Assembly: GCA_903873905.1 (NCBI GenBank)
Contig: CAIQQJ010000057.1
Coordinates: forward strand, 8,058 to 72,057
Direction: 5' to 3'
DNA from: an uncultured Flavobacteriales bacterium
GTDB lineage: Bacteria > Bacteroidota > Bacteroidia > Palsa-965
DNA: 64,000 nt
The stretch's first letter is position 1; each line of letters opens with the position of its first letter. Shown piece after piece: positions 2,843 to 43,889 of the stretch. Position numbers and translations under genes: made by a program. The notes under the pieces are model-generated. The model made no database searches and had not been told where the DNA came from. It saw only the letters and a program-made list of their open reading frames with translations.

Positions 2843-4159
2843 ATGTCAATCGGGCAGGACATTTTTTGGAATATTTTTCGCCGTAAAACGCGCCTTTTTT
2901 TTGTGCTCGTATTGTTTTTTTTCGGAAGCATTGCGAAAGCACAGGGCGACCTGCGTTTTTTTGGAACGGCTACAAAAGGTGGCAGTCCACTTCCCGGTGC
3001 AACAGTTTCTGTTCTTATGGATGGGAAACAGATTTTTAATTTAACCACGGGCAAAAACGGGAAATTCAAATTCACTATTGATATTGGCCATTCCTATCGC
3101 ATCAATTATTCAGCGCCTGGGTGTGTGGATATGTACATGACTATGGATTTGCATACACCACCCGATAAAGCATGGGTTTATCCCGATTACTCTGCAGAAA
3201 TCCCGTTTTTCATTGCTGGCGATCCGAAAATGAAAACGGAATTATTCGCTAAAAAACCGTTTATTAAAATTGTTTTCGATGGCAATAAAGGGTTCTATGA
3301 TGATCCTTCTTATCGTTTCGCCGAAGAGGTTTTCAAAAATCCTGCTGACGAACAACGTAAGAAAGATGAACTCGCTAAAAAAGATGCGGAAGAAAAAGCT
3401 CGTTTAGCAGCGCAGGAAAAATTGCGCAAGGATGAAGAGGATCGTCAGCGCTTAGCGCAGCAAGAAGAGGACAGACGTAAAAAAGAAGAAGAAGACAAAA
3501 AAAACAAAACAAAAGTCACCCATCCAATTGATAAGGAAACGCCTGAACCGACCGTGGATCCGTCGATGGAAACAGATGCTATAAAACTAGAGCGGGAAAA
3601 ACAGGAAAAACTGGAACACGAAAAAACAAATAAGAACATACGTGCCAATTACGAAAACAATTTGCTCAAGCTTGTTGCCGAAAGTGAACGTCAGAATAAT
3701 TTACAGAAGTTTAATAAGATGAAAGTGGATGCACAATCCAGTTCTGTTGTTCAAACATTGCGGAGAGAAGCGCAAGTAAAAGGTGAAAATGATTTTCTCC
3801 TTGAGAAGTTGAAGGAGAAGCAGAAACAAACGCTTGCCAATAAGCAAGTGAATGAGGAACACCTCAAACAATTAATTGAAACCGCTTCAAAAATTGAACG
3901 TGACGATCGAGCGTCAAGGATGAAACCAGTTGCCGCTTCCCAAAATTTGAATTATGTAGCATCACCCAATGTTGTTGTGACTACAGAGGACGATTTTATT
4001 TTTGAAACAAAATCTACAGTCATTTCATGGGCGAATGGAACAAGAACGATTTTCAGCGTTGATGAATATTTATGGGGAAGTAGATACTATTACCACGACG
4101 GTGTGGAAATTGATGAAAAAACTTATGATGCTGAACTTTTCAAGCACAAACGCAATTAG
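2843..4159 (+). CDS. Hypothetical secreted protein: signal peptide, CarboxypepD_reg-like beta-sandwich, long Lys/Glu-rich coiled coil
   Basis: N-terminal hydrophobic leader LFFVLVLFFFGSIAKAQG. GTATKGGSPLPGATVSVLMDGKQ...GKNGKFKF is a carboxypeptidase-regulatory-like motif. Highly charged KKDEE/RRKKEEEDKK repeats follow. The 3' end overlaps the next ORF in another frame. Confidence 0.5.
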   Translation: MSIGQDIFWNIFRRKTRLFFVLVLFFFGSIAKAQGDLRFFGTATKGGSPLPGATVSVLMDGKQIFNLTTGKNGKFKFTIDIGHSYRINYSAPGCVDMYMTMDLHTPPDKAWVYPDYSAEIPFFIAGDPKMKTELFAKKPFIKIVFDGNKGFYDDPSYRFAEEVFKNPADEQRKKDELAKKDAEEKARLAAQEKLRKDEEDRQRLAQQEEDRRKKEEEDKKNKTKVTHPIDKETPEPTVDPSMETDAIKLEREKQEKLEHEKTNKNIRANYENNLLKLVAESERQNNLQKFNKMKVDAQSSSVVQTLRREAQVKGENDFLLEKLKEKQKQTLANKQVNEEHLKQLIETASKIERDDRASRMKPVAASQNLNYVASPNVVVTTEDDFIFETKSTVISWANGTRTIFSVDEYLWGSRYYYHDGVEIDEKTYDAELFKHKRN

Positions 4160-7100
4160 AAAAAAAGCGATTTTGCTCTTTTCGATTTTGCTCTTCACAT
4201 TTACATTTCACGTAAGTGCGCAGACTTCCAGCTTTATCACTTACGGTGTGGAGCAAGGCTTGGCGCAATCACAAATCCAATCTCTCGTTCAGGATAACGA
4301 TGGAAATTTGTGGATTGGAACGCTGGCTGGACTTACGCGATACAATGGAATGGCGTTTGAAAACTTTTCCAAAAAGAATGGACTTGCTGAAGATTGGATT
4401 ACGGTTTCATACAAGGATTCCAAAGGTGATATTTGGTTTGGTCATTGGGCTGGCGGTGTGAGTCGGTACAATTCCAAAACAAAAAAATTCGAAAGTCTAA
4501 ATTTGGAAGAATACACACGCTTCAGAACCGTAACTGCAATAACGGAAGATCAGCAAGGTTTTTTCTGGATAGCAACTGAAGGATCGGGGATTTTTATTTA
4601 TGATCCGGCAAAAAATAAAATGTTTGCGCTCAATGTAAAAGACGGCATTGCAAGTTCAAATATTTACGCATTACAACTGGACAAAAATGGAAACATGTGG
4701 ATCGGAACCGATCACGGCATTACCATTTGCGATACAAAAGGTGATATCAGCTCCCCCGCTTCATTTGTTGATTTGAGCGCAGCGCGTGGTTTTCCAAGTG
4801 ACGCCATCACTTCATTCGCACTTGCGAATAAGGGAACTGAAATGTGGGTGGGCACTGGTGATAAAGGTGTAATTGCACTTGAACTTCCTACTGGTTTTGT
4901 AAATAGAAACGCACCTACACTTCTTCCAACATTACACACTTTCCGAAACGATCAAGGCCTCGGCTCGGATTTTATTGAAACAATTTGTGAGGACAGTCAC
5001 GGAAATATTTGGGTGGGAACAATTGGTGGAGGTGCAACAAAAATTACGCCTTCGAAATCTGGAAATCGTTTGGATGCACTCGATAAGGCGGTGCTCAAAA
5101 ATTTCAATACTACACAAGGATTAAATTATTTTAATGTTCACACCATCATTGAGGATCGTGAAGGAAATATGTGGATTGGAACGGATGTTGGTTTGAATCA
5201 ATATCGCGGAGAACGTTTTCAATTGATTGACAAACAAGATGGACTTATCAATGATATTGTTTGGGCTACTTGTGTTGACCATGAAGGGTCAGTTTGGTTG
5301 GGAACAAACGGTGGACTTTCTCGCTTGACCTATTACACTGTTCCAGGCACAGGAGAAAAAAGATTTACAGTAAAAAATTACACCATTGAGGATGGATTGG
5401 GAAGTAATGTAATTCTTTCCATTTATGAAGATGAAACAAATACATTATGGGTGGGAACAGGATTTGGTGGCGTCAGCCGATTACTTCCTGGAGAATCACA
5501 TTTTGAAACGTTCAGTACAAAAGACGGCCTTGCTGATGATGTTGTTTACGCAATTAATTCCGATACAAAAGGAAATGTTTGGATTGGAACGAAAGAAGGC
5601 GTTTCAAGATTTGATGCAGCAACAAAAACATTTCGTAATTACACTACAGAAGATGGCCTTGGTGGAAATAACGTTTACAAAATATTTCGAGATAGTCGTG
5701 GAAATTTATGGTTTGGTGCTTTGGGAGGTTATCTTTCTGTTTACGATGGGAAAGGGTTTACAAAATATGACGAATCAAGTGGAATAGTTCATCGTTTTAT
5801 TCTTTGCATTAATGAAGATAAAGACCACAACATTTGGTTTGGCGCATACGGTGGTGGTTTGTATAAATTCGATGGAAGAACTTTTCACAATTACACTTCT
5901 AAAAATGGAATGACTACCGATTCTCCCTACGCGATTATTGCAGATCTCGATGGAAACATTTGGGTTGGAAACGGAAGAGGTCTTGATAGGTTCACGCCAA
6001 AAGACAGTTCATTTTCTCATTACGGACGAAGCGAAGGGTTTTTGGGTGTGGAAGTAAATCCAAATGCAGTTTCAATTTCGAAAGATGGAAGTTTGTGGTT
6101 CGGAACAATTATGGGTGCAGTGAAATTTGATCCGAATGAAAATAATTTGAATACCGTAGAACCATTAACTTCTATCAATGCTTTGAAAATATTTATGCGT
6201 GATGCGGATTTTCCGGAAGAAGGGAAATTCAGTTACGATCAGAATCATCTCACTTTTGGTTTTGTTGGAATCAGTTTGTCAAATCCTGAAAAAGTAAAAT
6301 ATCAATATAAACTTGAGGGATTTGATAATGATTGGTCACCTGTGCCAACCATTCATAACGAAGCCGTGTATTCGAATCTTCCTCCTGGTGATTATACATT
6401 CTTGGTTAAAGCCTCTAACAATGATGGGAAATGGAATAAGGATCCTGTTCAGTATAAATTTTACATCCGCCCTCCTTTCTGGCAAACGGCAACGTTTTAT
6501 GCACTCATGGTTTTCTTTGTTCTGTTTAGCATTTTTGGTTTTGATAAAATGCGAACACGTAAATTGAAGAAACAGAAAAAAATATTGGAAGAAAAAGTGG
6601 AGCAACGCACCCTAGAACTCGCACTCAAGAATGAAGAATTAGGTCAGAAAAACAGAGAGATCACAGATAGTATCCGATATGCAAAACGTTTGCAGGATAC
6701 CATGATGTTGCCAAGTCGTGATTTGAGAAAAACATTCCCAGAATCATTCCTGTTTTACAAACCGAAAGATATTGTTTCCGGAGATTTTTATTTTTCACGC
6801 ACCTATAACATTGGCGGAAAGCGAAGAGTGTTGGTGGCTGCAATTGATTGCACAGGTCATGGAGTTCCTGGTGCATTCATGAGCATCATGACCAATGATA
6901 TGATTCTTCATTTGTTGGATGGACATGAAATGGAATCGCCCGCACAATTGCTTGATCGTTTGAATGAAGCAATGAGTGGTAAAATGCGTCACACAATTGA
7001 TGAAGTAAAAGTTCGCGATGGTGTTGACATTGGCCTTGCTGTAATTGATCCTGATACGTTGGAAATGCAATATGCAGGAGCGTTCAATCCGATGTATATG

Positions 7101-7424
7101 TTCCGTGGAATTCAATTTACAGAATACAAAGCGGATAAAATTTCCATTGGAGGTTTTGGTGAAGACAAAGGGAAAAAGTTCACCAATCAACGCATTCAGC
7201 TTCAAGCGGGCGATACAGTTTATCTTTTCTCTGATGGTTATGCCGATCAGTTTGGTGGACCACAAGGAAAAAAATTCAAACTTTCACAAATGAAAGCTTT
7301 ACTTCTGAATTTACAGGAAAAGGAAATGTATGATCAACATCGTTTGCTTGAACAAACGATTGAAACATGGAAAGGTACACATGAGCAAGTGGACGACATG
7401 TTGGTGATTGGCTTCAGAGTGTGA
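4113..7424 (+). CDS. Membrane sensor: signal peptide, two-component-regulator propeller (Reg_prop) repeats + Y_Y_Y domain, TM helix, coiled coil, C-terminal PP2C/SpoIIE-type Ser/Thr phosphatase. The ORF opens at 4002; the likely start is the Met at 4113-4128 preceding the signal peptide.
   Basis: Repeated GN(I/M)W(I/V)GT propeller motifs. Y_Y_Y region KYQYKLEGFDNDWSPV...PPGDYTFLVKASNNDGKWN. TM segment FYALMVFFVLFSIFGF. PP2C motifs IRYAKRLQ, AIDCTGHGVPGAFMS, FSDGYADQFGG and QVDDMLVIGFRV. Confidence 0.8.
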   Translation: MKKLMMLNFSSTNAIRKKAILLFSILLFTFTFHVSAQTSSFITYGVEQGLAQSQIQSLVQDNDGNLWIGTLAGLTRYNGMAFENFSKKNGLAEDWITVSYKDSKGDIWFGHWAGGVSRYNSKTKKFESLNLEEYTRFRTVTAITEDQQGFFWIATEGSGIFIYDPAKNKMFALNVKDGIASSNIYALQLDKNGNMWIGTDHGITICDTKGDISSPASFVDLSAARGFPSDAITSFALANKGTEMWVGTGDKGVIALELPTGFVNRNAPTLLPTLHTFRNDQGLGSDFIETICEDSHGNIWVGTIGGGATKITPSKSGNRLDALDKAVLKNFNTTQGLNYFNVHTIIEDREGNMWIGTDVGLNQYRGERFQLIDKQDGLINDIVWATCVDHEGSVWLGTNGGLSRLTYYTVPGTGEKRFTVKNYTIEDGLGSNVILSIYEDETNTLWVGTGFGGVSRLLPGESHFETFSTKDGLADDVVYAINSDTKGNVWIGTKEGVSRFDAATKTFRNYTTEDGLGGNNVYKIFRDSRGNLWFGALGGYLSVYDGKGFTKYDESSGIVHRFILCINEDKDHNIWFGAYGGGLYKFDGRTFHNYTSKNGMTTDSPYAIIADLDGNIWVGNGRGLDRFTPKDSSFSHYGRSEGFLGVEVNPNAVSISKDGSLWFGTIMGAVKFDPNENNLNTVEPLTSINALKIFMRDADFPEEGKFSYDQNHLTFGFVGISLSNPEKVKYQYKLEGFDNDWSPVPTIHNEAVYSNLPPGDYTFLVKASNNDGKWNKDPVQYKFYIRPPFWQTATFYALMVFFVLFSIFGFDKMRTRKLKKQKKILEEKVEQRTLELALKNEELGQKNREITDSIRYAKRLQDTMMLPSRDLRKTFPESFLFYKPKDIVSGDFYFSRTYNIGGKRRVLVAAIDCTGHGVPGAFMSIMTNDMILHLLDGHEMESPAQLLDRLNEAMSGKMRHTIDEVKVRDGVDIGLAVIDPDTLEMQYAGAFNPMYMFRGIQFTEYKADKISIGGFGEDKGKKFTNQRIQLQAGDTVYLFSDGYADQFGGPQGKKFKLSQMKALLLNLQEKEMYDQHRLLEQTIETWKGTHEQVDDMLVIGFRV

Positions 7425-7847: not shown

Positions 7848-7906
7848 TATTTCTCGGTTTTCAAAAGGCATTGAAAATTATTTTGCTTTTCCAAAAAATC
7901 GATAAA

Positions 7907-8554: not shown

Positions 8555-8565
8555 TTTAAAATTGC

Positions 8566-8793: not shown

Positions 8794-8798
8794 AAATC

Positions 8799-10059: not shown

Positions 10060-10066
10060 GGTTTTA

Positions 10067-12163
10067 TTAAACTCTCACACCTAATACTAGCACGTCATCA
10101 AGTTGCTCTAGATTTCCTTTCCAATTTAAAAATTCTTCCTCAATTCTTTTTGCTTGCTCATTCAATGGCAAGGAAGAAACTTTTGTGAGCAGTTCATTGA
10201 AATTTTTGGAAAGATATTTTTTCCCTGTCGTTTCACCAAACTGATCAACATAACCGTCGGAAGAAAGATAAAAGGTTGTTTTGTTGGTTAGAGGAATTTC
10301 AATTTCTGCAAAAGGGGCATCGCCTTCTTTTTTTTCACCCGCAACAGAGTAGCGATCGCCTTTCACAAAATGAAATCCAGTTTGATCAACATAATAGAGT
10401 GGGCGACCAGCTCCGGAAAAAACGGCTTTTTTGTAGGTTGTATCAATACACAACATGGCAATGTCCATTCCATCGCTGGTGTCACGTGCGTCAACATCCT
10501 TGTTCAAGGCGTGGATCATCAGCACGTGCAAACGGTCAAGAATTTGGGATGGACTTGGTTTGCCATCCTGCTCAATAATTTTATTCAACATGTTGATTCC
10601 AATAACAGAAACCAAGGCTCCAGGAACACCGTGACCTGTACAATCGGCGACAGCAATGTAAGTGCAGCCTTCTTTTTCTGCCAACCAATAAAAATCTCCA
10701 CTCACAATATCGCGTGGTTTGTTTAAAATGAAAGACTCTACGCCCGATTTTTTTAGAATGCGATCATCGGGCATAACTGATTGTTGAATCCTTCTTGCAT
10801 AGGTTATACTTGCAGTGATTTCTTCTTTCTGTTGTGAAATCTCCACATTCTTTTTTTTGAGGATGAAATTGTGTTTTTGCTTGTTGCGCAATATTAAAAA
10901 GATGACAACAAGGATAATGAAGAATAAAATACTTCCAGAAAGAAATAAAATTGTATTGCGTCGATTTGCTTCTATTGCGAGTTTTGTCTGTGTGTCGGCA
11001 ATCAACATCAACTTGTTCTTTTTGTCCAACTCATAACTCTTCCGCATTTTTTCCACAGCTTCCGTTTGCGCCTGCCCATGAATACTGTCATTCAGATTCA
11101 TGTATCTTCTCAAATTGTAAAGCGCAGGCTCAAATTGTTTTTTCTTTTCGTAGGAGAGGCTAATTCCGTAATAAAATTCCGATTCAACATCCCGAATTCC
11201 AATTTGTTTTGCAATAATTAAACCACGTTGATAATTTGCCAATGCTGAATCTGGATTTCCCAAATCTCGTTCTGTATTTCCGATTGAAAGAAAGGCTTTT
11301 GCAACACCTTCTGGATGGTTCAATTCAATATTGAGAATAAGCGCTTTTCGTGAATAATAGATAGAGGAGTCATAATTACCTAATGCTTTGAAACAATCGC
11401 CAATATTATCATAAGTTGAACCAAGTCTCATTTTCATTCCGTTGCTGGAAAATTTGGAGAGGGCAATTCTAAAATAATAAAGTGCAGAATCATGTTTATC
11501 CAATTGTTCAAACATGGCACCAATATTTCCAAGTAATGCAGCTTCCAATTCCTGGTTATTATTGCTTTCTTTATTTAATCTATATCCTTCTTCGTAGGTT
11601 TTGAGAGCATTGGAAATATCATTTTGCCTATAATAAATATTTCCAAGTGTGAGTTTACAAACAGCGATTCCAAATTTATTTTTTAATTTTTCCTGCAACT
11701 TCAAGGAACGAATGGCATAATCTGCTGCGTTGGGATAATCACCTGTGCGATTGTAAACATTTGCAATGTTTAAATCTATTTTCGCAACTTCCTCTTCTTT
11801 TCCCATCTGTTTCCATCGTGTAAGCGAGGAATCATAATAGAGTATTGCATTTTCGAATTGGCCGCTGTTTTCAAAGCTCTGACCACACATGTTATAACCA
11901 TTCGCAAGTCCATGGGAATAATTTGCTTTACGCGAAATGGCTATTGCCTTTAGTGCAAATTCCTTATGTTGTATAGGATCTGAATAGCGATATAAACTTG
12001 CCAGTTGATTATACGTATTTGCTAAACTTGTGTCGTGCTGCTCAATTTTCAAAAGGGCTTTTAGACTGTCTGCTTTTTTTTCGTTTTGTCCGAAGGCAAC
12101 AGAAGAGACAACCTGTATAAACAGACAAAATGTTAGAATTAATTTTAGAAGACGAGTTGTCAT
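10067..12163 (-). CDS. Membrane sensor: signal peptide, periplasmic TPR repeats, TM helix, coiled coil, PP2C/SpoIIE-type phosphatase
   Basis: TPR-like repeats (ALKAIAISRKANYSHGLANGYNMCGQSFENSGQFENAILYY etc.). TM segment ILFLSGSILFFIILVVIFLIL. PP2C motifs ITYARRIQQS, VADCTGHGVPGALVS, SSDGYVDQFGE and QLDDVLVLGVRV. Confidence 0.8.
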   Translation of the reverse strand: MTTRLLKLILTFCLFIQVVSSVAFGQNEKKADSLKALLKIEQHDTSLANTYNQLASLYRYSDPIQHKEFALKAIAISRKANYSHGLANGYNMCGQSFENSGQFENAILYYDSSLTRWKQMGKEEEVAKIDLNIANVYNRTGDYPNAADYAIRSLKLQEKLKNKFGIAVCKLTLGNIYYRQNDISNALKTYEEGYRLNKESNNNQELEAALLGNIGAMFEQLDKHDSALYYFRIALSKFSSNGMKMRLGSTYDNIGDCFKALGNYDSSIYYSRKALILNIELNHPEGVAKAFLSIGNTERDLGNPDSALANYQRGLIIAKQIGIRDVESEFYYGISLSYEKKKQFEPALYNLRRYMNLNDSIHGQAQTEAVEKMRKSYELDKKNKLMLIADTQTKLAIEANRRNTILFLSGSILFFIILVVIFLILRNKQKHNFILKKKNVEISQQKEEITASITYARRIQQSVMPDDRILKKSGVESFILNKPRDIVSGDFYWLAEKEGCTYIAVADCTGHGVPGALVSVIGINMLNKIIEQDGKPSPSQILDRLHVLMIHALNKDVDARDTSDGMDIAMLCIDTTYKKAVFSGAGRPLYYVDQTGFHFVKGDRYSVAGEKKEGDAPFAEIEIPLTNKTTFYLSSDGYVDQFGETTGKKYLSKNFNELLTKVSSLPLNEQAKRIEEEFLNWKGNLEQLDDVLVLGVRV

Positions 12164-12183: not shown

Positions 12184-14268
12184 TTAATCCACCATAAGGC
12201 CAATTACTAGTATGTCATCCACTTGTTCCAAATTACCTTTCCAATCAACGAATTCCATTTTCAGGATTTGTTTTTGTTTTTCACAATCGTGGGAATGAAT
12301 TTTTGATAACAATTCCCTGAAACGGGTGTATTTGAATTTCTTTCCAGCCGGTCCGCCAAATTGATCAGCGTATCCGTCAGTGAAAAGGTACACCATATCG
12401 CCTGGGAAAAGTTGGATTTCATGATTGGTATAATTGTCGGCAACGCCATCAACATTTATTCCAATTGGGAATTTGTCGGAATTCAATTGAATGAATTCGC
12501 CCTTTGTGATGATGTAAGCCGGATTAAAAGCCCCTGCGTATTGCAGTTTTCTTGTTGAAGGATCGTAAGAACAAATGGCAATGTCCATTCCATCCTTTAC
12601 GGTATTGCCCGCATCAGATTGCCGCAATAATTTGTTCACACCAAAATCCAAGTGATGCAAAATGTCGGAAGGTTTTGTCAATCCCATTTCATTTACCGCC
12701 TGATTCAACAAATTGAAACCGATTACTGACATCAATGCACCAGGAACACCATGACCTGTACAATCTACTGCAGAGAAAATGGAATACTTGTCTCTACTAT
12801 CCAGCCAATAGAAATCACCACTCACAACGTCTTTTGGTTCGTAAAGGATAAAACTATTTGGAAGGACACGTTTGATTTGGTTTGGTGGAGGTAGAATGGA
12901 ATCCTGAATTTTCTTGGCGTAATTGATACTGTCGGTAATTGATTTTTTTTGCATGGAAATTTCAATGTTATTCTTCTCCAGTGCAGTGTTGAGTTTTTCT
13001 TTTACACGATAGCGGTAAAAAATAAATGCAATAATGATAAGCAACAACAATATTCCAACGATCAACATGAGAATGTTTCGAGATGCTCCGACTTTTTCTG
13101 CTTTATGTTCCGCCTCGATCAATTCCAGTTTGTGCTGCTCTTTTTCCGAATCGTAACGGGATCGAAGTTGATTTACTGCATTTACACTTTCTTCCCCTTT
13201 GACACTATCGTTAAGTGATTTATAACGGTCCAAAAAATAATAGGCAGAATCAAATTTGTTTAGTCCGGCAAAAGCAATTGCAATTCCCTCATAACAACCC
13301 AAGCGCTGCGATTTGGATTCCATGATATAGGCAATACGCAATGCGTAGGAATAAAAATATAAAGCTGAATCATGATGGTTAAGGTCGTTTGATAAACTTC
13401 CAAGATTCTGAAATGTTGAACAAACTCCACTTGTGTCACCATTCACTCTTCGCAAAGTCAAACTTCTTCTGAATAATTCACCTGCCTCATTATATTTTTT
13501 TTGAAATTGACGAATGGTTCCGAGGTTATTGAGACAAACGGATAATTCATAAACGGCATTTTCCTTACTGAAAATAGTTTCCCCTTTTTGATAATAGTAG
13601 GCCGCGCTATCATAACTCTGCATTGCATTATAAACGTTGCCGATATTAGTTAATGCCCTTCCCTTAAATTCAGGTTGAGTGGGGAAATGATAAGCAATTC
13701 TCAATGCCTCACGATATTGTTTCAATGTAAGGTCAAAGGATTTTTGTTCAATCAAAACATTGCCAATGGCAAGATGCATGGCGAACTGTCCTTCATAATT
13801 GTTCAATATTTCATAAAACCTCAACGCTTGATAAGCGTGATCAACTGCTGCAGTATAATCTCCGATGAAATATTCATTGTTGGCCATGTTGCCAAGGGAT
13901 TTGGCTTGGCCCAGTGTGTCATTCAGTCTTGCGTAAACTTCATAAGATTGCTGTTGGTCCTTGATTGCTTCCACGAAATTTCCACCAGTTTGATCCGCAA
14001 GTCCGAGCATCAAATATGAAGTTGCAATTCCCCAATCATAATTTGACTTTTTCGCAAGAGAAAGTGCTTGCAGGGCATAACTTCTTTCGGATGTATCGTA
14101 TTGGTCATCCAATAATTTTGTGATTTTCACCAATACATTTACACGTTCAGTATCCTGCAAATTACCAGATAGGAGTTTTTTCAAACTGTCAACATTGTTC
14201 TGTGCCACAATGTTGCCCAATGAAAAACAGCAAATAAAAAAAATGATTGAGACGAAATGTTTTTTCAT
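12184..14268 (-). CDS. Membrane sensor: signal peptide, TPR repeats, TM, PP2C/SpoIIE-type phosphatase (paralog)
   Basis: TM segment ILMLIVGILLLLIIIAFIFY. PP2C motifs INYAKKIQDS, AVDCTGHGVPGALMS, FTDGYADQFGG and QVDDILVIGLMV. Confidence 0.8.
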   Translation of the reverse strand: MKKHFVSIIFFICCFSLGNIVAQNNVDSLKKLLSGNLQDTERVNVLVKITKLLDDQYDTSERSYALQALSLAKKSNYDWGIATSYLMLGLADQTGGNFVEAIKDQQQSYEVYARLNDTLGQAKSLGNMANNEYFIGDYTAAVDHAYQALRFYEILNNYEGQFAMHLAIGNVLIEQKSFDLTLKQYREALRIAYHFPTQPEFKGRALTNIGNVYNAMQSYDSAAYYYQKGETIFSKENAVYELSVCLNNLGTIRQFQKKYNEAGELFRRSLTLRRVNGDTSGVCSTFQNLGSLSNDLNHHDSALYFYSYALRIAYIMESKSQRLGCYEGIAIAFAGLNKFDSAYYFLDRYKSLNDSVKGEESVNAVNQLRSRYDSEKEQHKLELIEAEHKAEKVGASRNILMLIVGILLLLIIIAFIFYRYRVKEKLNTALEKNNIEISMQKKSITDSINYAKKIQDSILPPPNQIKRVLPNSFILYEPKDVVSGDFYWLDSRDKYSIFSAVDCTGHGVPGALMSVIGFNLLNQAVNEMGLTKPSDILHHLDFGVNKLLRQSDAGNTVKDGMDIAICSYDPSTRKLQYAGAFNPAYIITKGEFIQLNSDKFPIGINVDGVADNYTNHEIQLFPGDMVYLFTDGYADQFGGPAGKKFKYTRFRELLSKIHSHDCEKQKQILKMEFVDWKGNLEQVDDILVIGLMVD

Positions 14269-17200: not shown

Positions 17201-17529
17201 GAATCGCGTTGCAAATATCCGAACTCACCAACTGCGCCAACATAAATAATTCCAGTTGTGCTATCAATCATGATTTGTCGATTGGCAGAACCGGATTTTA
17301 CAAGAACATTTTGAAAAGTTGTACCGTCAAAAACAAAAATGGAAGACGTTCCTGCAAAATAGAGTAACCCATTTTTATCTTGCGTCGCCTGCCACATTTG
17401 GTTGAAGCCAAGGTAATCTTTCGGTGTATAATTTTTAATGTGATATCCCGAACGCTGCGCAAACACTTCCCTCCCTGAAAAAATCAGAAGGAAAACAAAC
17501 AACAAACTATTCTTGATTGCAGAATTCAT
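14272..17529 (-). CDS. Membrane sensor: signal peptide, Reg_prop beta-propeller + Y_Y_Y domain, TM, PP2C/SpoIIE-type phosphatase (paralog of 4113..7424)
   Basis: Y_Y_Y region YLYKLEGFDTTWYPV...LSEGKYTFKVKMYN. TM segment LAYILFVLAFLGIIFISV. PP2C motifs IHYAERIQHA, CVDCTGHGVPGAFMS, TSDGYADQFGG and QVDDVLVIGFRY. The start codon overlaps the upstream gene stop (ATGA). Confidence 0.8.
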   Translation of the reverse strand: MNSAIKNSLLFVFLLIFSGREVFAQRSGYHIKNYTPKDYLGFNQMWQATQDKNGLLYFAGTSSIFVFDGTTFQNVLVKSGSANRQIMIDSTTGIIYVGAVGEFGYLQRDSVNGKLGFVSLTTSLDSNQKTFSDIWKVFGANGKIYFQSTERIFICKEKKIIGTIEASREKGFALMFQSNGKLFVRQRTVGLMEIVNDKLQLCPGGERFVNTRLLGMIPWKNQKSLIVSSDSGFFVMDPKLNSRSVTWFSTLSEKADTFSSYHGALGCEWVNDSTFAVFTRSGIGFYNRNAQLIEILNKKSGLGDESIADVFVDRQKNIWLMHNNGISKVSYNSPALFFSDQSGFSGTLQWLIRYQGNLFAGTTEGLFIECSNVNGSPSNLRFKRVEEIPHTEVWNLTILKGDLFISTSEGLFYSHNGKIEKFSSQYINRVCESPNPDEFIAMEKGGMSVYSFIDGHLPKLIRHYEIPGEDIIRIGRINYASKKNDQYDFWCANRFKEVIHARFNVNDTNFTIQRYDTTNGLPMEQTYMVVVGDSTYFFSGTKAYRYIPSRATDPKSKCFSNAPEIFDLLFDGNFIGLKPPFDYSLFLQTNISPLITFYGMDSKNKFFRTKLPIGYCFGGNELQYVYSEPNGIAWLLSNSILLRYNSNINPPSDIPFNTIISSVKIGKDSTIYFGSDNINFTNAQAIPYQFNSIVFKFSAPYYELDGETNYLYKLEGFDTTWYPVKGNPEKSYTNLSEGKYTFKVKMYNLLGRTSKEGSYTFTILPPWYRTTLAYILFVLAFLGIIFISVRLSARRLRTQKEKLEIIVQERTAEVVEQKVKIEIQNSELEYAYKGIQDSIHYAERIQHAILPMQSEIHNSFPDSFVLFHPRDIVSGDFYWFVKRGNLTWIACVDCTGHGVPGAFMSMIGNTLLNEIVLEKNIESPDKILNLLHIRIRQALHQDMGGETRDGMDISLCLVDFEKKKLSYAGANRPLWMMRKNQMIVFPANKYSIGGDHGGDERFYTLHETELNDGDCFYLTSDGYADQFGGDRGKKLMVKRFQEMLQEIHLQPMPAQYDFFEKSFLDWKGKLEQVDDVLVIGFRYKT

Positions 17530-30318: not shown

Positions 30319-30356
30319 AAAGAAACCTTGCCAATTTTTTCAGCAAGGTTTCTTTT
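30319..30356 (-). terminator. Perfect 13-bp stem hairpin immediately downstream of the stop of 30370..31449 (minus strand)
   Basis: aaagaaaccttgc-caatttttt-cagcaaggtttcttt. Confidence 0.4.
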
Positions 30357-30369
30357 ATACTCTACGATT

Positions 30370-37395: not shown

Positions 37396-39159
37396 CTATT
37401 TCTTCAAACGATTAATATTTTTCCCAATATAAATATCAGTAGGTAAAAGTGACTGCTGAATTCTTTTCGCATAATGAATGGAGTCTAGAATTTCCTTTTG
37501 TTTTATTTCCACCAACTCTTTCTGATTTTCAACTTCCAATTTTTCTTTTGAAATGAGTTTGTTTGCTTTTCTTTTTGACTGATAAGCAAATCCAAGAATA
37601 AGTAGGATAACGCATATTGCACCTATCCCTCCAACAAGACTATTTCTTATAACTTTATTTTTTTCAGAAGTTTGTTTTTCTCTTTCATTTGACAATTGCT
37701 GTTTCAATCCAAATTCACTTTTCAACTTCATTTCATCATATTCGGACTGAAGGGAAAGCATTTCTGATTTGTTGTTTGCCTTATCAACAGAATCTTTAAG
37801 AGCAGTGCGCCGATCAAGATAAAAATAAGCCAGTTTCCAGTTTCCCATTCCTTCATATCCGTTATTTAAAAGGAAATAAATACGTTCCGTATAGATTATA
37901 TAGTGATCCACTTTCTCGATTTCCAGGGCACGAAGCGCATAAGAAACCACGAGGTCATATTTTTTTTCTTCCAAAGCGATTGTTGCCAGTGACATGTAGG
38001 AATACAATTCACCTTCTCTATTTCCACCTGCCAAACGGAGTTTAAGTGCGATCTCCTGATAATATTTTGCGGAATCTATCATTCCGGCACTCAATAAATA
38101 TTCGCCAAAATTTCCAAATTGCAAAGCAGAAACTTTTTTCCTTTCGAGAAAATCATAATGCATCGCTTTTCTCATGTTTGCAATGGCAGAGTCAAATTTC
38201 CCCTGTATTGAAAATAGATTGGCGCGTGTTGAATAGGAATGAGTGATTCTATAATTTGAATGGATGGCCATTGAGAGTTTCAAATTCATTGCATTCATTT
38301 CTTCCGCCTGCTTGTAATTTTCAATCTCAGCATAAAGCATTGCCAAATTACCAAGTGCCGAAAGCCATCCTGTTGTATCGTGTATTTGCTCTGAAATCTG
38401 AATTGCTTCCAGCAAAGGAGGTTGAGCGATGCGCATTCTCCTGTTGTCATTATTGTATAAACCTTTGAATTGAAGAACACGCTCATAAAGAAAAAGGGAG
38501 CCAGAACGTTTCGAATAAGTCTCGGCAGAATCAATATATGAGAATATTTTTTGTTTTGTTTCCAGTGAGGGATTATCACCATATAAATAATATACACGAC
38601 TCCAACGAAACCAAATCACAGCTTCTGCAATTACTGATTTGCTTTTTCTAGCGGCAGTTATTGCCCGGGTGAATAATTCTTCAATCGTCTTGGCGTCCAA
38701 ATCCTTTTTTATTGAAGTCAACACAATTGTTTTCAATAGGAGGCACCTCGACAATAGGGAGAATTGTTTTTCCTTTTCAGCTGATGCAATTCCGGCATCG
38801 ATGGCAGTCATTGCCCCTGGAAAATCCTTTGCCAGGAAGCATTTCAACATTTTCTGCTGCAACGAAATTATTCCGAAAGAATTAGGATACAATAATTTTG
38901 CAGTCTTCTCCTGCTGGGCAATCAAGGACTGGGCATACGCTGAATCGCCATTGGCGGCATCTTGAAAATTATGCTCTATCAGCCAAAGTTTCCTTTCTAC
39001 ATTACTACAGGAGTCAATTATTCTTTTGAATAATCGACTGTTTATTGTTTGCTGAGCGAAAGCTGTTTGTTCAAGGGCAAAAACCGAGAGCAGACAAAGT
39101 AGCAATCGTATTGAAACGGAAGTTTTCATTCGTAATGCTAGTGAAAGTGAAATATCCAA
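37396..39159 (-). CDS. TPR-like periplasmic domain + TM sensor protein whose PP2C phosphatase domain is cut off after its first ~20 residues (degenerate paralog / possible pseudogene)
   Basis: Signal peptide. TM segment LVGGIGAICVILLILGFAY. Coiled coil. Ends ...ILDSIHYAKRIQQSLLPTDIYIGKNINRLKK-stop, i.e. only the first conserved PP2C motif is present; no DCTGHG, DGYADQFGG or DD motifs. No ORF of 60 aa or more in the 417 nt downstream (37395 to 36979). Confidence 0.65.
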   Translation of the reverse strand: MDISLSLALRMKTSVSIRLLLCLLSVFALEQTAFAQQTINSRLFKRIIDSCSNVERKLWLIEHNFQDAANGDSAYAQSLIAQQEKTAKLLYPNSFGIISLQQKMLKCFLAKDFPGAMTAIDAGIASAEKEKQFSLLSRCLLLKTIVLTSIKKDLDAKTIEELFTRAITAARKSKSVIAEAVIWFRWSRVYYLYGDNPSLETKQKIFSYIDSAETYSKRSGSLFLYERVLQFKGLYNNDNRRMRIAQPPLLEAIQISEQIHDTTGWLSALGNLAMLYAEIENYKQAEEMNAMNLKLSMAIHSNYRITHSYSTRANLFSIQGKFDSAIANMRKAMHYDFLERKKVSALQFGNFGEYLLSAGMIDSAKYYQEIALKLRLAGGNREGELYSYMSLATIALEEKKYDLVVSYALRALEIEKVDHYIIYTERIYFLLNNGYEGMGNWKLAYFYLDRRTALKDSVDKANNKSEMLSLQSEYDEMKLKSEFGLKQQLSNEREKQTSEKNKVIRNSLVGGIGAICVILLILGFAYQSKRKANKLISKEKLEVENQKELVEIKQKEILDSIHYAKRIQQSLLPTDIYIGKNINRLKK

Positions 39160-39199: not shown

Positions 39200-39976
39200 T
39201 TATTCAATCACCAATTTCTTCGCAGGTGAATTTCCGATCCGAACAAAATAAATTCCTGATGGCCCCTGGGAAAGATCAATTATTTGATCAGTTGAAATTT
39301 CTTTTTGAAGAATTAATTCTCCCAACATGTTTTCCACTCGAAGCATTTCAGGATTTTGCAATGGAGAAAAAAATTGAATGGAAATGTTTCCATTGGAAGG
39401 ATTTGGGAAAATGTTCCAACCTACATTGGAATTGAATTCGTTCATTCCAGTGACCATTATTGTTTGACATGCTGTATCAAAACATCCATTTGCATCCACC
39501 ACAAACAAACATACCGTTTCATTTCCTGATGAAGAATAAGTGTGCGAAGGAAATTGTTGTTGAGAAGTTCCTGCATCACCGAAATTCCAAAGCCATGATG
39601 CTATGCCCCCAGTGCTGAGATCCAAAAATGAAACGTTATTGTTTCCATTAAGTGTAAATGTAAACGCTGCAACAGGATTTGGAAAAACCGTTACAACACC
39701 ACTTGAGGTTGTGGTTCCACTTGCAAGTGTTTCGATTAGCGTTACGGTATAAGTTGCAGGAATGGTATAACAATGCATTGGACTCTGCAAGTTGGAAGGT
39801 GCGGACGCATCACCAAAATCCCAAAGCCAAGTAAGAACGTTAGGCGTCTGATCTTGGAAGCCTGCACACACTGGACTACATCCGCTGGATGGGGAAATGG
39901 TAAATGTCGGTTGTGAAAATCCTTGAATGGAAAATCCTGCCAAAAAAACCAAGAGGCACGTAATTTGCTTTTTCAT
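39200..39976 (-). CDS. T9SS cargo protein with PKD domain(s) and type-A C-terminal sorting domain
   Basis: PKD motif WLWNFGDAGTSQQQFPSHTYSSSGNETVCLFVVDANGC. CTD FPNPSNGNISIQFFSPLQNPEMLRVENMLGELILQKEI...GIYFVRIGNS. Confidence 0.7.
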   Translation of the reverse strand: MKKQITCLLVFLAGFSIQGFSQPTFTISPSSGCSPVCAGFQDQTPNVLTWLWDFGDASAPSNLQSPMHCYTIPATYTVTLIETLASGTTTSSGVVTVFPNPVAAFTFTLNGNNNVSFLDLSTGGIASWLWNFGDAGTSQQQFPSHTYSSSGNETVCLFVVDANGCFDTACQTIMVTGMNEFNSNVGWNIFPNPSNGNISIQFFSPLQNPEMLRVENMLGELILQKEISTDQIIDLSQGPSGIYFVRIGNSPAKKLVIE

Positions 39977-40094: not shown

Positions 40095-41846
40095 TCAAAA
40101 CGTTTTATTGTTTTTATTTTTATTCAGACGAATTAATGTTTTTTCAATATATTTTTCAGTAGGTAAAAGTGATTGTTGAATTCGTTTTGCGTAATGAATG
40201 GAGTCAATAATTTCCTTTTGTTTTTCCTCCACGATTTCCTTTTGCATGGCGATCTCCGTGTTTTTCTGTTCGAGCAGGATGTTTGATTTATTTTTGATTC
40301 TGTAACTACGGAAAACAAAAACAAGAATCAATAAAATAGAAAGGATTCCAAACAATAATAGGTTTCGAATAAATGAATTTTTCTGAGCTTGTTTTTCGCT
40401 TTCTATTTTGGAAATATTTTGTTTGAAATCGAATTGTTCTTTCATCTGTTTCTTTTCATATGCGGACCGGATATCCCCAATTTTTGTTTTGTTACTAAGG
40501 CTGTCAAGCGAATCAATAGCAAGCTGATGTTTTTTCATGTAAAGAAAGGCCTTCTCCCAATTCTTCAGTCCTTCATATCCTTGGTAAAGATTCAGGTAGA
40601 TATTGTCGTCATAAATTCCAAAATGTCGATCGTTTTCAATTGCCAATGCCTTTTCTCCATAACTCACCGCTTCTTGAAAATTCTTTTCCTTGATGGATAT
40701 TCTACCCAATGAATTGTAAGAATAAAGTTCTCCTTCTTTATTTTTAAATTTAATTCTTTCTTCCAAAGCAATTTTCTGATAATATTTTGCACTGTCAATA
40801 AAACCAAATCCCAAAAGCAATTCTCCAAAATCACCCTTAACTAGCGGGTCATTGTAATTGTTTTTTGCAAGGTCATTGTACAAAATGCTTTTCCTTCCAT
40901 ATTCCAATGCTTTTAGGGTATCCTTGATACTTGCATAATCAAACATAACTTGATGGCAATAATTACTCAAATAGCCATAGCTTTTCAATTTTTCAGCGAG
41001 CTGAATTCCTTTCAAATTATATTTAACGGCTTCCTGATAATTTTCAACAGCTCCATAAATGCCACCGAGTAAGGAATAGGCTGTCATAAGTGATGTGGTG
41101 TCAGATATTTTCTCTGCTAGCGAAAGCATGGGAAGAATAAGTTCTTCAGCTTTGCTGTTATTTTTCTCCAAGTAATAGGCGCGAGCCTCTGAAATTGTAC
41201 TCTTCTCGAAAAAGAAAGTCATCCCATGTCTTTGAAAAATGGCGATAGCAGAATCAGAAAACAGGAATGCATCATTTTGCATATTTTCAAATTCTTTTTT
41301 TGATCTTTCATTGAAACGATATTTCGAATAAACTAACCAGTACGAGCCTTCCAACATCCAATTACCTTGATCATGTGCTAGTTTAATGGAAGATTTAAAA
41401 AATGTTTCTATTGCAGGATGTTCTGCTTCATCATGAGCACTAAAAAAAATGGCAGCACGTGAATAATCAAGCATAGCTTTTTTTGCCAACAGCTCTTTCT
41501 TGTTTACAATTTGTGAAAGTGAATCAATAATCGTTCGTGCTGCTTGATCATCTCCTCTCATATGAAAAAGCAAAGCCTGCTGTTCAGCGAGCGTGTATTT
41601 TTGAAAAGCTGGATTGATTTTCTTTTCAACTTCATTGTATTGGGCACACCATTTTGAAAATTGTGTTGTATCCGTTGCACACGCATCAATAAGTGCTGCC
41701 TCAATGAGATAAAGTTTTTCACGCGGAGCTTTGGTCGTATCAATTAGGCGCCCGTAAAGTCGCTGCAACGATGTGTGTTGTGCAGATGCCTGAATGCAAA
41801 TGAGGCAAAAGAAAAGATGGGCAAGAAGTAGGGTTCTTGTTTTCAT
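40095..41846 (-). CDS. Second TPR-like + TM sensor protein with truncated PP2C stub (paralog of 37396..39159)
   Basis: TM segment LLLFGILSILLILVFVF. Ends ...IIDSIHYAKRIQQSLLPTEKYIEKTLIRLNKNKNNKTF-stop. The 3'-terminal ~100 nt are near-identical at DNA level to the 3' end of 37396..39159 (cagtaggtaaaagtga(c/t)tg(c/t)tgaattc...taatgaatggagtc). Confidence 0.65.
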   Translation of the reverse strand: MKTRTLLLAHLFFCLICIQASAQHTSLQRLYGRLIDTTKAPREKLYLIEAALIDACATDTTQFSKWCAQYNEVEKKINPAFQKYTLAEQQALLFHMRGDDQAARTIIDSLSQIVNKKELLAKKAMLDYSRAAIFFSAHDEAEHPAIETFFKSSIKLAHDQGNWMLEGSYWLVYSKYRFNERSKKEFENMQNDAFLFSDSAIAIFQRHGMTFFFEKSTISEARAYYLEKNNSKAEELILPMLSLAEKISDTTSLMTAYSLLGGIYGAVENYQEAVKYNLKGIQLAEKLKSYGYLSNYCHQVMFDYASIKDTLKALEYGRKSILYNDLAKNNYNDPLVKGDFGELLLGFGFIDSAKYYQKIALEERIKFKNKEGELYSYNSLGRISIKEKNFQEAVSYGEKALAIENDRHFGIYDDNIYLNLYQGYEGLKNWEKAFLYMKKHQLAIDSLDSLSNKTKIGDIRSAYEKKQMKEQFDFKQNISKIESEKQAQKNSFIRNLLLFGILSILLILVFVFRSYRIKNKSNILLEQKNTEIAMQKEIVEEKQKEIIDSIHYAKRIQQSLLPTEKYIEKTLIRLNKNKNNKTF

Positions 41847-41903: not shown

Positions 41904-43889
41904 TTAAATCCTGATGCCTATTACACAAACATCATCCAATTGTTCAAGGTTACCTTTCCAATCCTCGAAAGTTTTATCCAAAACATTTTTCTGTTCTGAC
42001 ATTTTCATTGCACTGATCGCGAGCAGCTTTTCCTCAAGTTGTTTGTATTTGAATTTTTTCCCTTTCTCTCCACCGAATTGATCCGCATAGCCATCTGTGA
42101 AACAATATAATGCATCGCCTTTTTGCAATTGAAAATCACGTTTACCAAAATCCTTCAAGTCTCCGCTATGAACACCCACGGGCATTTTATCGGCTTCAAG
42201 AAAAATCACTTCATTGCCTGCTACTGATTTGCGAATAATAACTGCAGGATTATTCGCTCCTGAAAATTCAATTGTATTGTTTTTTTTGTTCCATGAAAAA
42301 ATTGAAATGTCCATTCCATCACGTTGTCGGATTTCCCTTCCACGCTGTTCAAGCGCATGAATTATTTTTTCACGAAGCAGATTTAAAATAAGTCCAGTGG
42401 AAAATATTTTCTTGCCGGAAACAATTTCATCGAGAAAACTCATCCCCAAAACACTCATGAATGCGCCTGGAACGCCATGACCTGTACAATCGGCAGCACA
42501 CCAAACGGCGTACGCATTGGACGAATATGCCCAATAGAAATCTCCGCTCACCACATCGCGCGGTTTGAAAAGAATAAAATATTCAGGAACTATTTCTTCC
42601 CAAGTTTCCTTTTGTGTCAACAGTGCCGATTGAATTCGCTCAGCATAATTGATGGAATCGGTAATAGATTTGTTTTTTTCTTCAACGATAATTTTCTGTT
42701 TTTCAATAATCATTTTCTGTCGTTGCGTAATGCGAAAACGATTGAGAATAAAACCTAGAAACAATAGCACCATCACCAATCCTGCCGTTACCGCGAGGAT
42801 GATAAGCTTTTGTTTTTTCTTTTCGGATTCATCTATTGCACTTTGTTTTTCATGGTCTTTACGAAGTGCGAGTTTTTCATTCTCATATTGATTTTGCATT
42901 TCAATACGCTCCATGCTTCTTTTGGTTTCCTCATTGTTCAGGGAATCCCTTGCCTTGATGAACTCCTTGTAAAACTTGAGCGCCTTCATGCCGTCATTTT
43001 TCTTGGAATAAACTTCTGAAAGCGTTTCACAGATTTCCTCCACACCAACCAAATCGCCAATTTCTTTTGAAATGCCCAATGCTTCCAATTCATATTGCTC
43101 CGCTTTGGGAAGGTCCTTCATTTCCAGATACAGTGCACCGATATTGGCAAGTGAAGTGGAAACGCCAATGCGGTTATTGATTTCCCTCCGCAAATCAAGT
43201 GAGAGCAAATAATATTTCAAGGCACGGTCATAATCTTTTTCCGACTGGTATAAAGTGCCAAGATTGTTGAAGGTGTTTGAGATTCCTTTCTTGTTGGTTC
43301 GAGGGTTTTCATACTCCAGTGCCTGTTTGTAATATTTCAATGCTGTTGAAGTGTCGCCAAGAACCTTGTACACAATTCCAATATTGTTGAGAGATCCGGA
43401 AATTCCTGTGGAATCTTTTTGTTGTTGCTGAATAGCCAATGCCTTTTTATAATATTCCAGCGCCTTTGTATTGTTATTCTGGTACCAATAAATGATCCCG
43501 ATGGAATTGTAACAGAGCGATGTTTTCTTTTGCGATTGCATGCTGTCGGCAACATTCAGTGCGACGAATTTCATCTCCAACGCTTTCGTGTAATCGCCTA
43601 GGTCGAGAAAAATATTTCCAAGACTAAATGCGGATTCATAAATTCCTGACTTGACATTTGCTGCACGGTAAAGACGATAGGCCAATTCCGCATTCATTTT
43701 GCCATTCATGGCATTATCCGCATCTACATATTCATTGGACAATTGCAAATAATATTTTGCCTTGGTCGAATCAATTTTGGTTGCAGCAATGAGATTTTGC
43801 AGCGAATCAATCTTGTCCTTTTGCGCATGGGAAACTGAACACGTGCAGGACGCGATAAAAAAAAGAAAAAGCTGAATGACTTTTTTCAT
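41904..43889 (-). CDS. Membrane sensor: signal peptide, TPR repeats, TM, PP2C/SpoIIE-type phosphatase (paralog)
   Basis: TM segment LIILAVTAGLVMVLLFLGFIL. PP2C motifs INYAERIQSA, AADCTGHGVPGAFMS, FTDGYADQFGG and QLDDVCVIGIRI. Confidence 0.8.
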   Translation of the reverse strand: MKKVIQLFLFFIASCTCSVSHAQKDKIDSLQNLIAATKIDSTKAKYYLQLSNEYVDADNAMNGKMNAELAYRLYRAANVKSGIYESAFSLGNIFLDLGDYTKALEMKFVALNVADSMQSQKKTSLCYNSIGIIYWYQNNNTKALEYYKKALAIQQQQKDSTGISGSLNNIGIVYKVLGDTSTALKYYKQALEYENPRTNKKGISNTFNNLGTLYQSEKDYDRALKYYLLSLDLRREINNRIGVSTSLANIGALYLEMKDLPKAEQYELEALGISKEIGDLVGVEEICETLSEVYSKKNDGMKALKFYKEFIKARDSLNNEETKRSMERIEMQNQYENEKLALRKDHEKQSAIDESEKKKQKLIILAVTAGLVMVLLFLGFILNRFRITQRQKMIIEKQKIIVEEKNKSITDSINYAERIQSALLTQKETWEEIVPEYFILFKPRDVVSGDFYWAYSSNAYAVWCAADCTGHGVPGAFMSVLGMSFLDEIVSGKKIFSTGLILNLLREKIIHALEQRGREIRQRDGMDISIFSWNKKNNTIEFSGANNPAVIIRKSVAGNEVIFLEADKMPVGVHSGDLKDFGKRDFQLQKGDALYCFTDGYADQFGGEKGKKFKYKQLEEKLLAISAMKMSEQKNVLDKTFEDWKGNLEQLDDVCVIGIRI

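Follow-up and report, generated by a model that had tools for sequence, protein, structure and literature searches.

SiaA-type PP2C domains joined to periplasmic sensor modules in a dense array of membrane proteins from an uncultured member of the Bacteroidota

Accounts of signal transduction in Bacteroidota usually center on hybrid two-component systems (HTCS), pairs of extracytoplasmic function (ECF) sigma and anti-sigma factors, and SusR-like regulators; studies of the SiaB and SiaC families have, to our knowledge, been confined to date to Pseudomonas, in which they control a diguanylate cyclase. In that system, phosphorylated SiaC is dephosphorylated by SiaA and phosphorylated again by SiaB, and in its free form it activates the cyclase SiaD (PMC7647112). 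SiaC has a STAS-like structure, and the module counts as a partner-switch system; the PP2C domain of SiaA crystallizes and elutes as a dimer, its conserved active-site residues are D457, D474, G477, D600, G601, and D653, and D534 and D604 support a third metal (PMC7647112). Coiled-coil linkers that drive the formation of PPM dimers are a general mechanism (PMC12143880). Here, we analyze a 64-kb window (the whole stretch of DNA under study, from contig CAIQQJ010000057.1 of an uncultured Flavobacteriales bacterium) with 8 genes, A to H, which encode 6 full-length membrane proteins joining a periplasmic sensor to a SiaA-type PP2C phosphatase and 2 sensors of the same design without the phosphatase. 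An open reading frame (ORF) check of the window found all 8 at the coordinates given in Table 1.

An earlier note, drawn from the letters of this DNA, had read the 6 full-length proteins (A to E and H) as periplasmic-sensor/PP2C membrane proteins, and this assignment holds: each has 1 transmembrane helix and a signal-like segment, and all match the Pfam family SpoIIE (PF07228) well above its cutoff of 25 bits (A 76, B 72, C 79, D 54, E 64, and H 64 bits). The domains also match the C-terminal part of the SiaA model NF038263 (A 202, B 192, C 205, D 210, E 184, and H 146 bits), the match being confined to model positions ~372 to 657 (the C-terminal ~270 positions). The sole sequence match of E in the PDB was the PP2C domain of SiaA, 6K4E (phmmer, E = 9.5e-33), with an alignment covering the whole domain, and the same structure was the best PP2C fold match of a model of D (Foldseek; E = 1e-18, TM-score 0.90, root mean square deviation 2.6 A, 32% identity). 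No RsbU, RsbP, or SpoIIE structure was retrieved by the PDB sequence search or stood in the Foldseek top 50 of the D model, and neither an RsbU_N domain nor the multi-pass membrane region of SpoIIE was matched by Pfam in the 6 proteins. Sharing more than 50 invariant positions, their PP2C domains make up a tight SiaA-like subfamily and are of the SiaA type, not of the RsbU type.

The active-site residues of SiaA were mapped onto the 6 proteins through the phmmer alignment with 6K4E. All metal ligands of SiaA are invariant in the 6 domains: D457 (in SGDF), D474 and G477 (DCTGHG), D534 (DGMD), D600, G601, and D604 (DGYADQ), and D653 (DD). The earlier claim that the metal-binding motifs are intact is thus correct as regards the ligands, but not as regards the list of motifs: 'xYAxRIQ', counted among them, is the helix that ends the linker, ahead of beta-1 of the PP2C core, and does not bind metal, whereas the first metal-binding Asp lies in 'SGDFY', which was not listed.

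The sensor modules are of 2 kinds, as had been proposed. Pfam matched TPR families in B, C, E, H, F, and G, the TPR_12 scores of the full-length proteins being 106 (B), 95 (C), 153 (E), and 108 bits (H). In A, Reg_prop was matched in 6 stretches (189 bits), followed by Y_Y_Y (67 bits). In D, Pfam recognized Y_Y_Y (41 bits), and the N-terminal 650 residues gave no Reg_prop match; an AlphaFold2 model built on 40 orthologs (pLDDT 86) has four-strand blades, a beta-sandwich, 1 long helix, and a PP2C core, and matches the HTCS periplasmic sensors BT4663 (4A2L), BT3049, and BT4673 (Foldseek; E = 4e-30 to 1e-25, TM-score up to 0.72). No HisKA, HATPase_c, receiver, or AraC-type HTH domain was found by Pfam in A or D. 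In distant homologs, the propeller/Y_Y_Y sensor of D is joined to HisKA/HATPase/REC/AraC, GerE, or PAS/GAF-PP2C outputs, and such different outputs on one type of sensor show domain swapping. Fusion of Reg_prop/Y_Y_Y with PP2C, which the earlier note contrasted with the normal histidine kinase output of this module, turned out to be common in sequence databases: 7,788 of 8,000 scored candidates for A reach E <= 1e-10, the best 120 matches (49% to 100% identity) all combine Reg_prop, Y_Y_Y, and SpoIIE, and the homologs already bear automatic names, either 'ligand-binding sensor domain-containing protein/serine phosphatase RsbU' or 'SpoIIE family protein phosphatase'. Literature searches found no description of these sensor phosphatases in Bacteroidota.

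All 8 proteins begin with a signal-like segment ending in A/G/S-Q and have 1 strongly hydrophobic helix followed by a charged helical linker of 29 to 51 residues. In A, the hydrophobic segment spans residues 826 to 850 of the longer, 1140-aa ORF; the start is most likely at 4113 (1103 aa), in agreement with the annotation of an NCBI metagenome-assembled genome (MAG). In 318 homologs, the distance from the transmembrane helix to the motif clusters at ~32, 39, 45 to 46, and 51 to 53 residues, with 85% of the lengths being 3 to 4 modulo 7, statistics that take in many related sequences and are supportive only. This periodicity fits a continuous coiled coil between the transmembrane helix and the PP2C domain.

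F and G, for which Pfam finds no SpoIIE match, end 19 and 26 residues, respectively, after 'DSIHYAKRIQ'. Alignment with full-length relatives agrees with the earlier reading that they carry only the first of the listed motifs; since that motif does not bind metal and the first metal-binding Asp belongs to SGDFY, neither protein keeps a catalytic residue. There is no room downstream of either stop codon for a PP2C remnant. F and G are only 33% identical, yet they end at the same point, as do the homologs P0122 (64% identical to G, from another MAG) and P0128 (26%), and their nearest full-length relatives (32% to 34%) run on into a complete PP2C domain. The lengths of F and G are identical in independent assemblies, and comparison of G with its ortholog P0122 gave a dN of 0.25, a saturated dS, and a dN/dS of ~0.07, with the C-terminal 90 codons being the most conserved.

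F, G, P0122, and P0128 all end 15 to 25 residues after '[DS]SIxYAxRIQxxLLP', with no PP2C core, and we refer to such proteins as stubs. An exhaustive profile search with the stub family covered 1.84 billion representatives. Among the best 150, 122 end at the same tail without the PP2C core and 22 are full-length TPR-PP2C proteins; F itself is representative P0146 of the stub family (P0146 to P0294). The consensus of the tail is '...EEKQKEILDSIHYAKRIQQSLLPTEKYIxKxLxRLKK', with 'DSIHYAKRIQQSLLPTEKYI' ..RLKK as its conserved part. The stubs are named only 'TPR repeat protein', have TPR matches only in Pfam, and are covered by no specific NCBIfam model; in 1 of them, a 7TMR-DISM sensor takes the place of the TPR array. 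In metagenome loci, among them L105, stub genes occur in tandem arrays, of which that in L106 has 7 consecutive genes, and in L095, L119, and L128 they directly follow full-length sensor PP2C genes on one strand; no conserved neighbor outside the family itself was found in 16 stub-bearing metagenome loci. F and G are thus members of a large and widespread family of phosphatase-less sensors maintained by selection.

Which proteins the phosphatases may act on is suggested by related loci in other genomes. One genome per GTDB species was scanned with 2 motifs of this PP2C subtype, yielding at least 596 confirmed matches, and the best 80 loci were analyzed; almost all are titled Bacteroidota of many orders, with a few titles naming other taxa. 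ORFs of these loci were called and clustered to rank the neighbors recurring within ~10 kb. The 2 most recurrent neighbors were a ~185-aa family, in 13 of the 80 loci, and a ~127-aa family, in 12. The former are SiaB-family kinases (NF038262, 174 to 271 bits, cutoff 85; PF19788, DUF6272) and the latter SiaC-family phosphoproteins (PF09345, 109 to 150 bits; DUF1987). Both families directly match their P. aeruginosa counterparts of known structure, the SiaB and SiaC chains, and the NTSS phospho-threonine site is kept. Many of these loci form co-oriented operons in which the PP2C gene is followed, in some cases after a lipoprotein gene, by SiaB and then SiaC, and sometimes by a TerB-ABC transporter fusion; the genes after SiaC also include one for a CarboxypepD_reg protein. 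In an unbiased Pfam scan of 150 small neighbors, the top families were SiaC (8), DUF4154 (8), and DUF6272 (7).

Two further arrangements recur in these loci. In ~10 of them, a gene for a YfiR-like DUF4154 periplasmic protein is followed by one for a ~300-aa TPR-like protein and one for a ~595-aa SiaA-type PP2C protein (seen in L013, L024, L031, L044, L054, L055, L060, and L069), which recalls the control of YfiN by YfiR, but with a phosphatase as output. In 3 Cytophagales loci (L039, L040, and L076), the order is CheR-like, CheB-like, a ~235-aa protein, sensor PP2C, SiaB, SiaC, and a ~1,020-aa TerB-ABC transporter fusion, the last of which is a candidate non-cyclase output of the SiaC-family protein.

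The explanation that we favor, and hold to be reasonably probable on the grounds of homology and of the association in other genomes, is that the full-length proteins are SiaA-type sensor phosphatases acting on a SiaC-family substrate. The 6 proteins would be dimeric, single-pass membrane sensor phosphatases, the periplasmic module of which (the TPR array in B, C, E, and H; the double beta-propeller plus Y_Y_Y in A and D) would bind the signal; the sensors of A and D, judging from their likeness to those of Bacteroides HTCS, are probably glycan sensors. The signal would pass through the transmembrane helix and a continuous, heptad-periodic helical linker to the cytoplasmic PP2C dimer, the substrate of which would be a small protein of the SiaC family (DUF1987, STAS-like) phosphorylated on threonine. 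Once removed, the phosphate would be restored by a SiaB-family kinase, and unphosphorylated SiaC would bind and switch an effector. One or a few SiaB/SiaC pairs, with genes at other places in the genome, probably receive the signals of several sensors. F and G, which keep the sensor, the transmembrane helix, the linker, and the 'DSIHYAKRIQQSLLPTEKYI' tail without the enzyme, would most likely modulate or scaffold the full-length sensors and not serve as phosphatases themselves. The partner switching proposed in the earlier note is accordingly the best reading of the array, but in a SiaA-type and not an RsbU-like form, as indicated by NF038263, 6K4E, and the SiaB/SiaC neighbors.

Several observations count against acceptance of this explanation as it stands. 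The SiaB/SiaC link consists of homology plus association in a minority of loci, 67 of the 80 having no SiaB/SiaC within ~10 kb. No SiaB or SiaC gene was found by tblastn and custom hidden Markov models, run on six-frame translations, in the window, in the 10 kb on each side of it, or in 5 syntenic relative loci, and no SiaD-like cyclase was seen next to the SiaB/SiaC pairs of Bacteroidota. All 6 proteins score far below the equivalog cutoff of NF038263 (700 bits), and neither a HAMP domain (Pfam) nor SiaA's own N-terminal region is present; they thus belong to the same PP2C subfamily and are not SiaA orthologs. As to F and G, modulation or scaffolding of the full-length sensors via the shared linker is their most likely role, but it involves a putative contact with a full-length sensor, and a stub gene adjoins the PP2C gene in none of the 80 PP2C-centered GTDB loci.

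The loci without SiaB/SiaC nearby also speak for an alternative in which the sensor phosphatases work outside any partner switch and act directly on other targets that carry phosphate on Ser/Thr, including Hanks-type kinase substrates and neighboring transporters or enzymes, for example, the pyridoxal phosphate (PLP)-dependent enzyme encoded next to D. The conservation of operons as different as PLP enzyme-D-C-B and YfiR-like-TPR-PP2C, that is, of varied local contexts, points the same way. We nevertheless regard direct action as unlikely: SiaC and SiaB are the only recurrent cytoplasmic phosphoprotein and kinase neighbors, no Pkinase family is among the recurrent neighbors in the 150-neighbor scan, and a subfamily as tight as this one suggests a shared type of substrate.

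A switch of the RsbU/SpoIIE type, in which the phosphatases would dephosphorylate STAS anti-sigma-factor antagonists and an RsbW-like kinase/anti-sigma factor, with its gene elsewhere, would thereby release a sigma factor, appears quite improbable. All 6 proteins do exceed the SpoIIE threshold of Pfam, their database homologs are named 'serine phosphatase RsbU', and the STAS-like structure of SiaC itself makes the 2 systems related; moreover, ECF sigma genes account for 4 of the 150 scanned neighbors, and one lies ~8 kb past the window's right end. However, ECF sigma genes are numerous in Bacteroidota, and 4 of 150 amounts to no enrichment. STAS and HATPase_c_2 are not among the recurrent neighbors in the 80 loci, no STAS or RsbW-type family is among the 25 most frequent families of the small-neighbor scan, and the proteins lack RsbU_N and are closest in sequence and fold to SiaA. 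The window agrees with the earlier note in having no partner gene: its gaps, small ORFs, and unassigned ORFs gave none by inspection and Pfam/NCBIfam, and it contains no STAS antagonist and no RsbW-type kinase/anti-sigma gene. Because the recurrent neighbors of this subtype are SiaB and SiaC, the suggested genome-wide search for STAS, RsbW, and sigma-factor partners is aimed at the wrong proteins.

The array is locally dense, as had been noted, with 5 PP2C genes within 10 kb on either side of D compared to a maximum of 3 in the 80 PP2C-centered GTDB loci; 4 to 5 PP2C genes occur in only 2 of 80 metagenome loci. This density does not reflect the recent lineage-specific expansion that had been suspected, since each paralog is closer to proteins of other genomes than to its neighbors and the gene order is kept: the PP2C domains of the window are 38% to 48% identical to each other, and each has a relative of 50% to 68% identity in another genome. 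Locus L092 preserves the order E...hydrolase-OsmC-PLP enzyme-D-C-B, with orthologs of E, D, C, and B at 59%, 62%, 51%, and 61%, and the more distant L093 preserves PLP enzyme-D-C, its C ortholog (59%) directly following that of D; the order Abhydrolase-OsmC-PLP enzyme-D is common to both loci, at 62% and 54% identity. In L088, E (69%) still adjoins the ribonucleotide reductase genes, and G and the PKD-domain gene remain paired (64% and 56%). A has orthologs of the same architecture at 49% to 85% identity, of which the one at 76% retains the upstream neighbors but not B-C-D, and orthologs of D range from 72% down to ~40%. By these comparisons, the array is an inherited syntenic block of old, diverged paralogs.

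It is therefore extremely improbable that F and G are decaying pseudogenes in a cluster amplified recently in tandem in this genome: although F and G lack the catalytic domain and B, C, and D are adjacent and co-oriented, F and G share an end point with P0122, P0128, and 122 of the 150 representatives despite their divergence, have constant lengths across assemblies and a low dN/dS, and the paralogs, with positional orthologs of B, C, D, E, and G at 51% to 69%, are older than such an event would allow, so that both decay and recent tandem duplication were rejected. In L088, a TPR-SpoIIE gene (7651-9828) occupies the position of H, upstream of the G ortholog. With only ~33% identity to H, compared to 56% to 69% for the G, PKD, and E orthologs, it was rejected as an H ortholog; the full-length gene beside the stub gene appears to have been replaced in L088 or to have diverged much faster than its neighbors.

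The window is a Bacteroidota chromosomal segment (class Bacteroidia) in which housekeeping genes, including those for ribonucleotide reductase, prolyl-tRNA synthetase, Pth, L25, and phosphoribosyl pyrophosphate synthetase, are interspersed with 6 cargo genes carrying the C-terminal domain (CTD) of the T9SS, the type IX secretion system. Identical copies of window proteins are present on contigs of several independent assemblies, including the NCBI MAG GCA_026391895.1. At the start of D, 4 nt are shared with the PLP enzyme gene; gaps of 3 nt (D-C) and 20 nt (C-B) follow, and H, G, the PKD gene, and F lie on one strand with gaps of 57, 118, and 40 nt. This spacing suggests 2 operons, PLP enzyme-D-C-B and H-G-PKD-F, and the former suggests that a sulfur amino-acid enzyme is co-transcribed with 3 sensor phosphatases. 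Promoter and terminator scans of both operon regions gave counts at the level of the shuffled background. As to regulation of T9SS cargo by the array, which the earlier note had raised, we found no support beyond the conserved pair of G and the PKD/CTD gene.

Table 1. Genes of the sensor array and their immediate neighbors in the window.
Feature	Coordinates	Strand	Product or architecture	Match or remark
Gene A	4113..7424	+	Signal peptide, Reg_prop double propeller + Y_Y_Y, transmembrane helix, 45-residue linker, SiaA-type PP2C	SpoIIE match (Pfam), DNA 6819-7418, strand +
Gene B	10067..12163	-	Signal peptide, TPR array, transmembrane helix, 29-residue linker, SiaA-type PP2C	SpoIIE match 10070-10672
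Gene C	12184..14268	-	Signal peptide, TPR array, transmembrane helix, 31-residue linker, SiaA-type PP2C	SpoIIE match 12196-12783
Gene D	14272..17529	-	Signal peptide, divergent HTCS-type double propeller + Y_Y_Y, transmembrane helix, 51-residue linker, SiaA-type PP2C	SpoIIE match (Pfam) 14281-14871, strand -
Gene E	21871..24027	-	Signal peptide, TPR array, transmembrane helix, 39-residue linker, SiaA-type PP2C	SpoIIE match 21892-22491
Gene F	37396..39159	-	Phosphatase-less sensor: signal peptide, TPR region, transmembrane helix, linker	Tail ~37399-37497
Gene G	40095..41846	-	Phosphatase-less sensor: signal peptide, TPR region, transmembrane helix, linker	Tail ~40098-40217
Gene H	41904..43889	-	Signal peptide, TPR array, transmembrane helix, 31-residue linker, SiaA-type PP2C	SpoIIE match 41910-42497
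PKD gene	39200..39976	-	PKD-domain T9SS cargo, between G and F	Pfam PKD_4 90 bits, Por_Secre_tail 50 bits
PLP enzyme gene	17526..18692	-	Cys/Met-metabolism PLP enzyme	Pfam Cys_Met_Meta_PP 437 bits
OsmC gene	18729-19223		OsmC	Upstream neighbor of PLP enzyme gene in conserved order
Hydrolase gene	19251-20261		Alpha/beta-hydrolase	Upstream neighbor of PLP enzyme gene in conserved order
Gene upstream of A	2843..4159	+	CarboxypepD_reg-like protein, overlaps start of A	Weak CarboxypepD_reg match; 438 aa (418 aa as annotated)

The gene upstream of A is also annotated in the MAG GCA_026391895.1, and a gene of 422 to 438 aa stands directly upstream of the A orthologs in L086 (weak CarboxypepD_reg match) and L087 (no family match); its product may be an envelope co-sensor or an operon partner of A. 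Downstream of A, the ORFs 7485-7847 (120 aa) and 7871-8554 (215 to 227 aa) have gene calls in the NCBI MAG; they match nothing in Pfam or NCBIfam, and in L086 the A ortholog is not followed by them. F is directly followed, on its own strand, by 2 tandem genes for 239-aa Crp/Fnr-type regulators (cNMP_binding plus HTH_Crp_2; 35064-35783 and 36259-36978). The segment between F and the DUF3109 gene is missing from the syntenic relative L088, as is the segment 31723-34780, which holds 3 co-oriented ORFs (309, 234, and 421 aa) with a sub-threshold RHS-repeat match only.

Elsewhere in the window, blocks of T9SS CTD cargo genes at 28830-31449 and 52771-58446 encode SprB-repeat, M43-peptidase-like (1174 aa), and Kelch-propeller proteins, and gene length in the right-hand block differs from one assembly of this organism to another, with 1174 aa in the present one and 1088 or 1012 aa in others. 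A tRNA-Leu(CAA) gene (52174-52258) lies in the 723-bp gap preceding this block, and a 114-aa protein of the 23S rRNA-intervening-sequence family is encoded at 58658-59002, in a 772-bp gap (58447-59218). The gene at 60834-61652, in a chromosomal housekeeping context, encodes a metallo-beta-lactamase-fold protein, the identical copy of which in L003 has a precomputed Pfam match to Anti-Pycsar_Apyc1 (PF23023).

Collectively, our data suggest a further, numerically large signaling layer, in which periplasmic sensor modules of Bacteroidota are wired to SiaA-type Ser/Thr phosphatases. If confirmed, this would provide a concrete and testable substrate hypothesis for many Bacteroidota proteins, from gut, oral, and environmental members alike, that are named only 'SpoIIE family' or 'RsbU', and a natural case of sensor modules being exchanged between kinases and phosphatases. 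A bolder proposal, which we put forward tentatively and consider rather doubtful, is that of a phylum-wide phospho-threonine partner-switch network, in which each genome would have dozens of periplasmic sensor phosphatases, their inputs being of the TPR, HTCS-propeller, or 7TMR-DISM kind, that converge on a few SiaB/SiaC hubs with outputs other than cyclic di-GMP, and in which a large family of catalytically headless sensors, F and G among them, would tune signaling by pairing with full-length sensors through the transmembrane helix, the coiled coil, and the 'YAKRIQ' linker. If true, pseudo-enzymes would serve here as decoys or co-sensors, a principle not known to have been described for bacterial PPM phosphatases. 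Whether pseudo-phosphatase sensors regulate their active paralogs is a question that the phosphatase-less family makes cheap to address.

Among described systems, SiaA of the P. aeruginosa SiaABCD module (6K4E; NF038263) is the closest: in it too, a membrane-anchored sensor precedes a PP2C domain from this subfamily (~32% identity, TM-score 0.90), with all metal ligands and the 'DS..YA..IQ..LP' helix ahead of the core, and related Bacteroidota loci have SiaB- and SiaC-family genes adjoining the phosphatase gene. The window proteins differ from it in that a TPR array or an HTCS-type propeller/Y_Y_Y replaces the SiaA N-terminal region, with no HAMP detected, in that siaB, siaC, and siaD are not beside the genes, in the many paralogs per locus, and in that no diguanylate cyclase was seen in the operons of Bacteroidota. 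With RsbU, RsbP, and SpoIIE of Firmicutes they share the PPM/PP2C fold that Pfam SpoIIE recognizes, a regulatory module at the N terminus, a helical linker, the phosphatase dimer, and the logic of the partner switch; unlike those proteins, they have no RsbU_N, PAS, or other cytoplasmic regulatory domain, their sensors are periplasmic, no STAS/RsbW neighbors were seen, and they are closer to SiaA. The TPR-bearing proteins resemble FimS, the TPR-sensor histidine kinase of Porphyromonas gingivalis (NF053520), in combining a periplasmic TPR array, a transmembrane helix, and a coiled coil, with matches of B, C, E, H, and the stubs to the FimS model that are far below threshold (57 to 138 bits, cutoff 600), but, unlike FimS, they have no kinase domain. 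Finally, A and D are built like the Bacteroides HTCS sensors BT4663, BT3049, and BT4673, with a double beta-propeller plus Y_Y_Y followed by a single transmembrane helix, and differ from them in their output, which is a PP2C phosphatase in place of HisKA/HATPase/REC/AraC.

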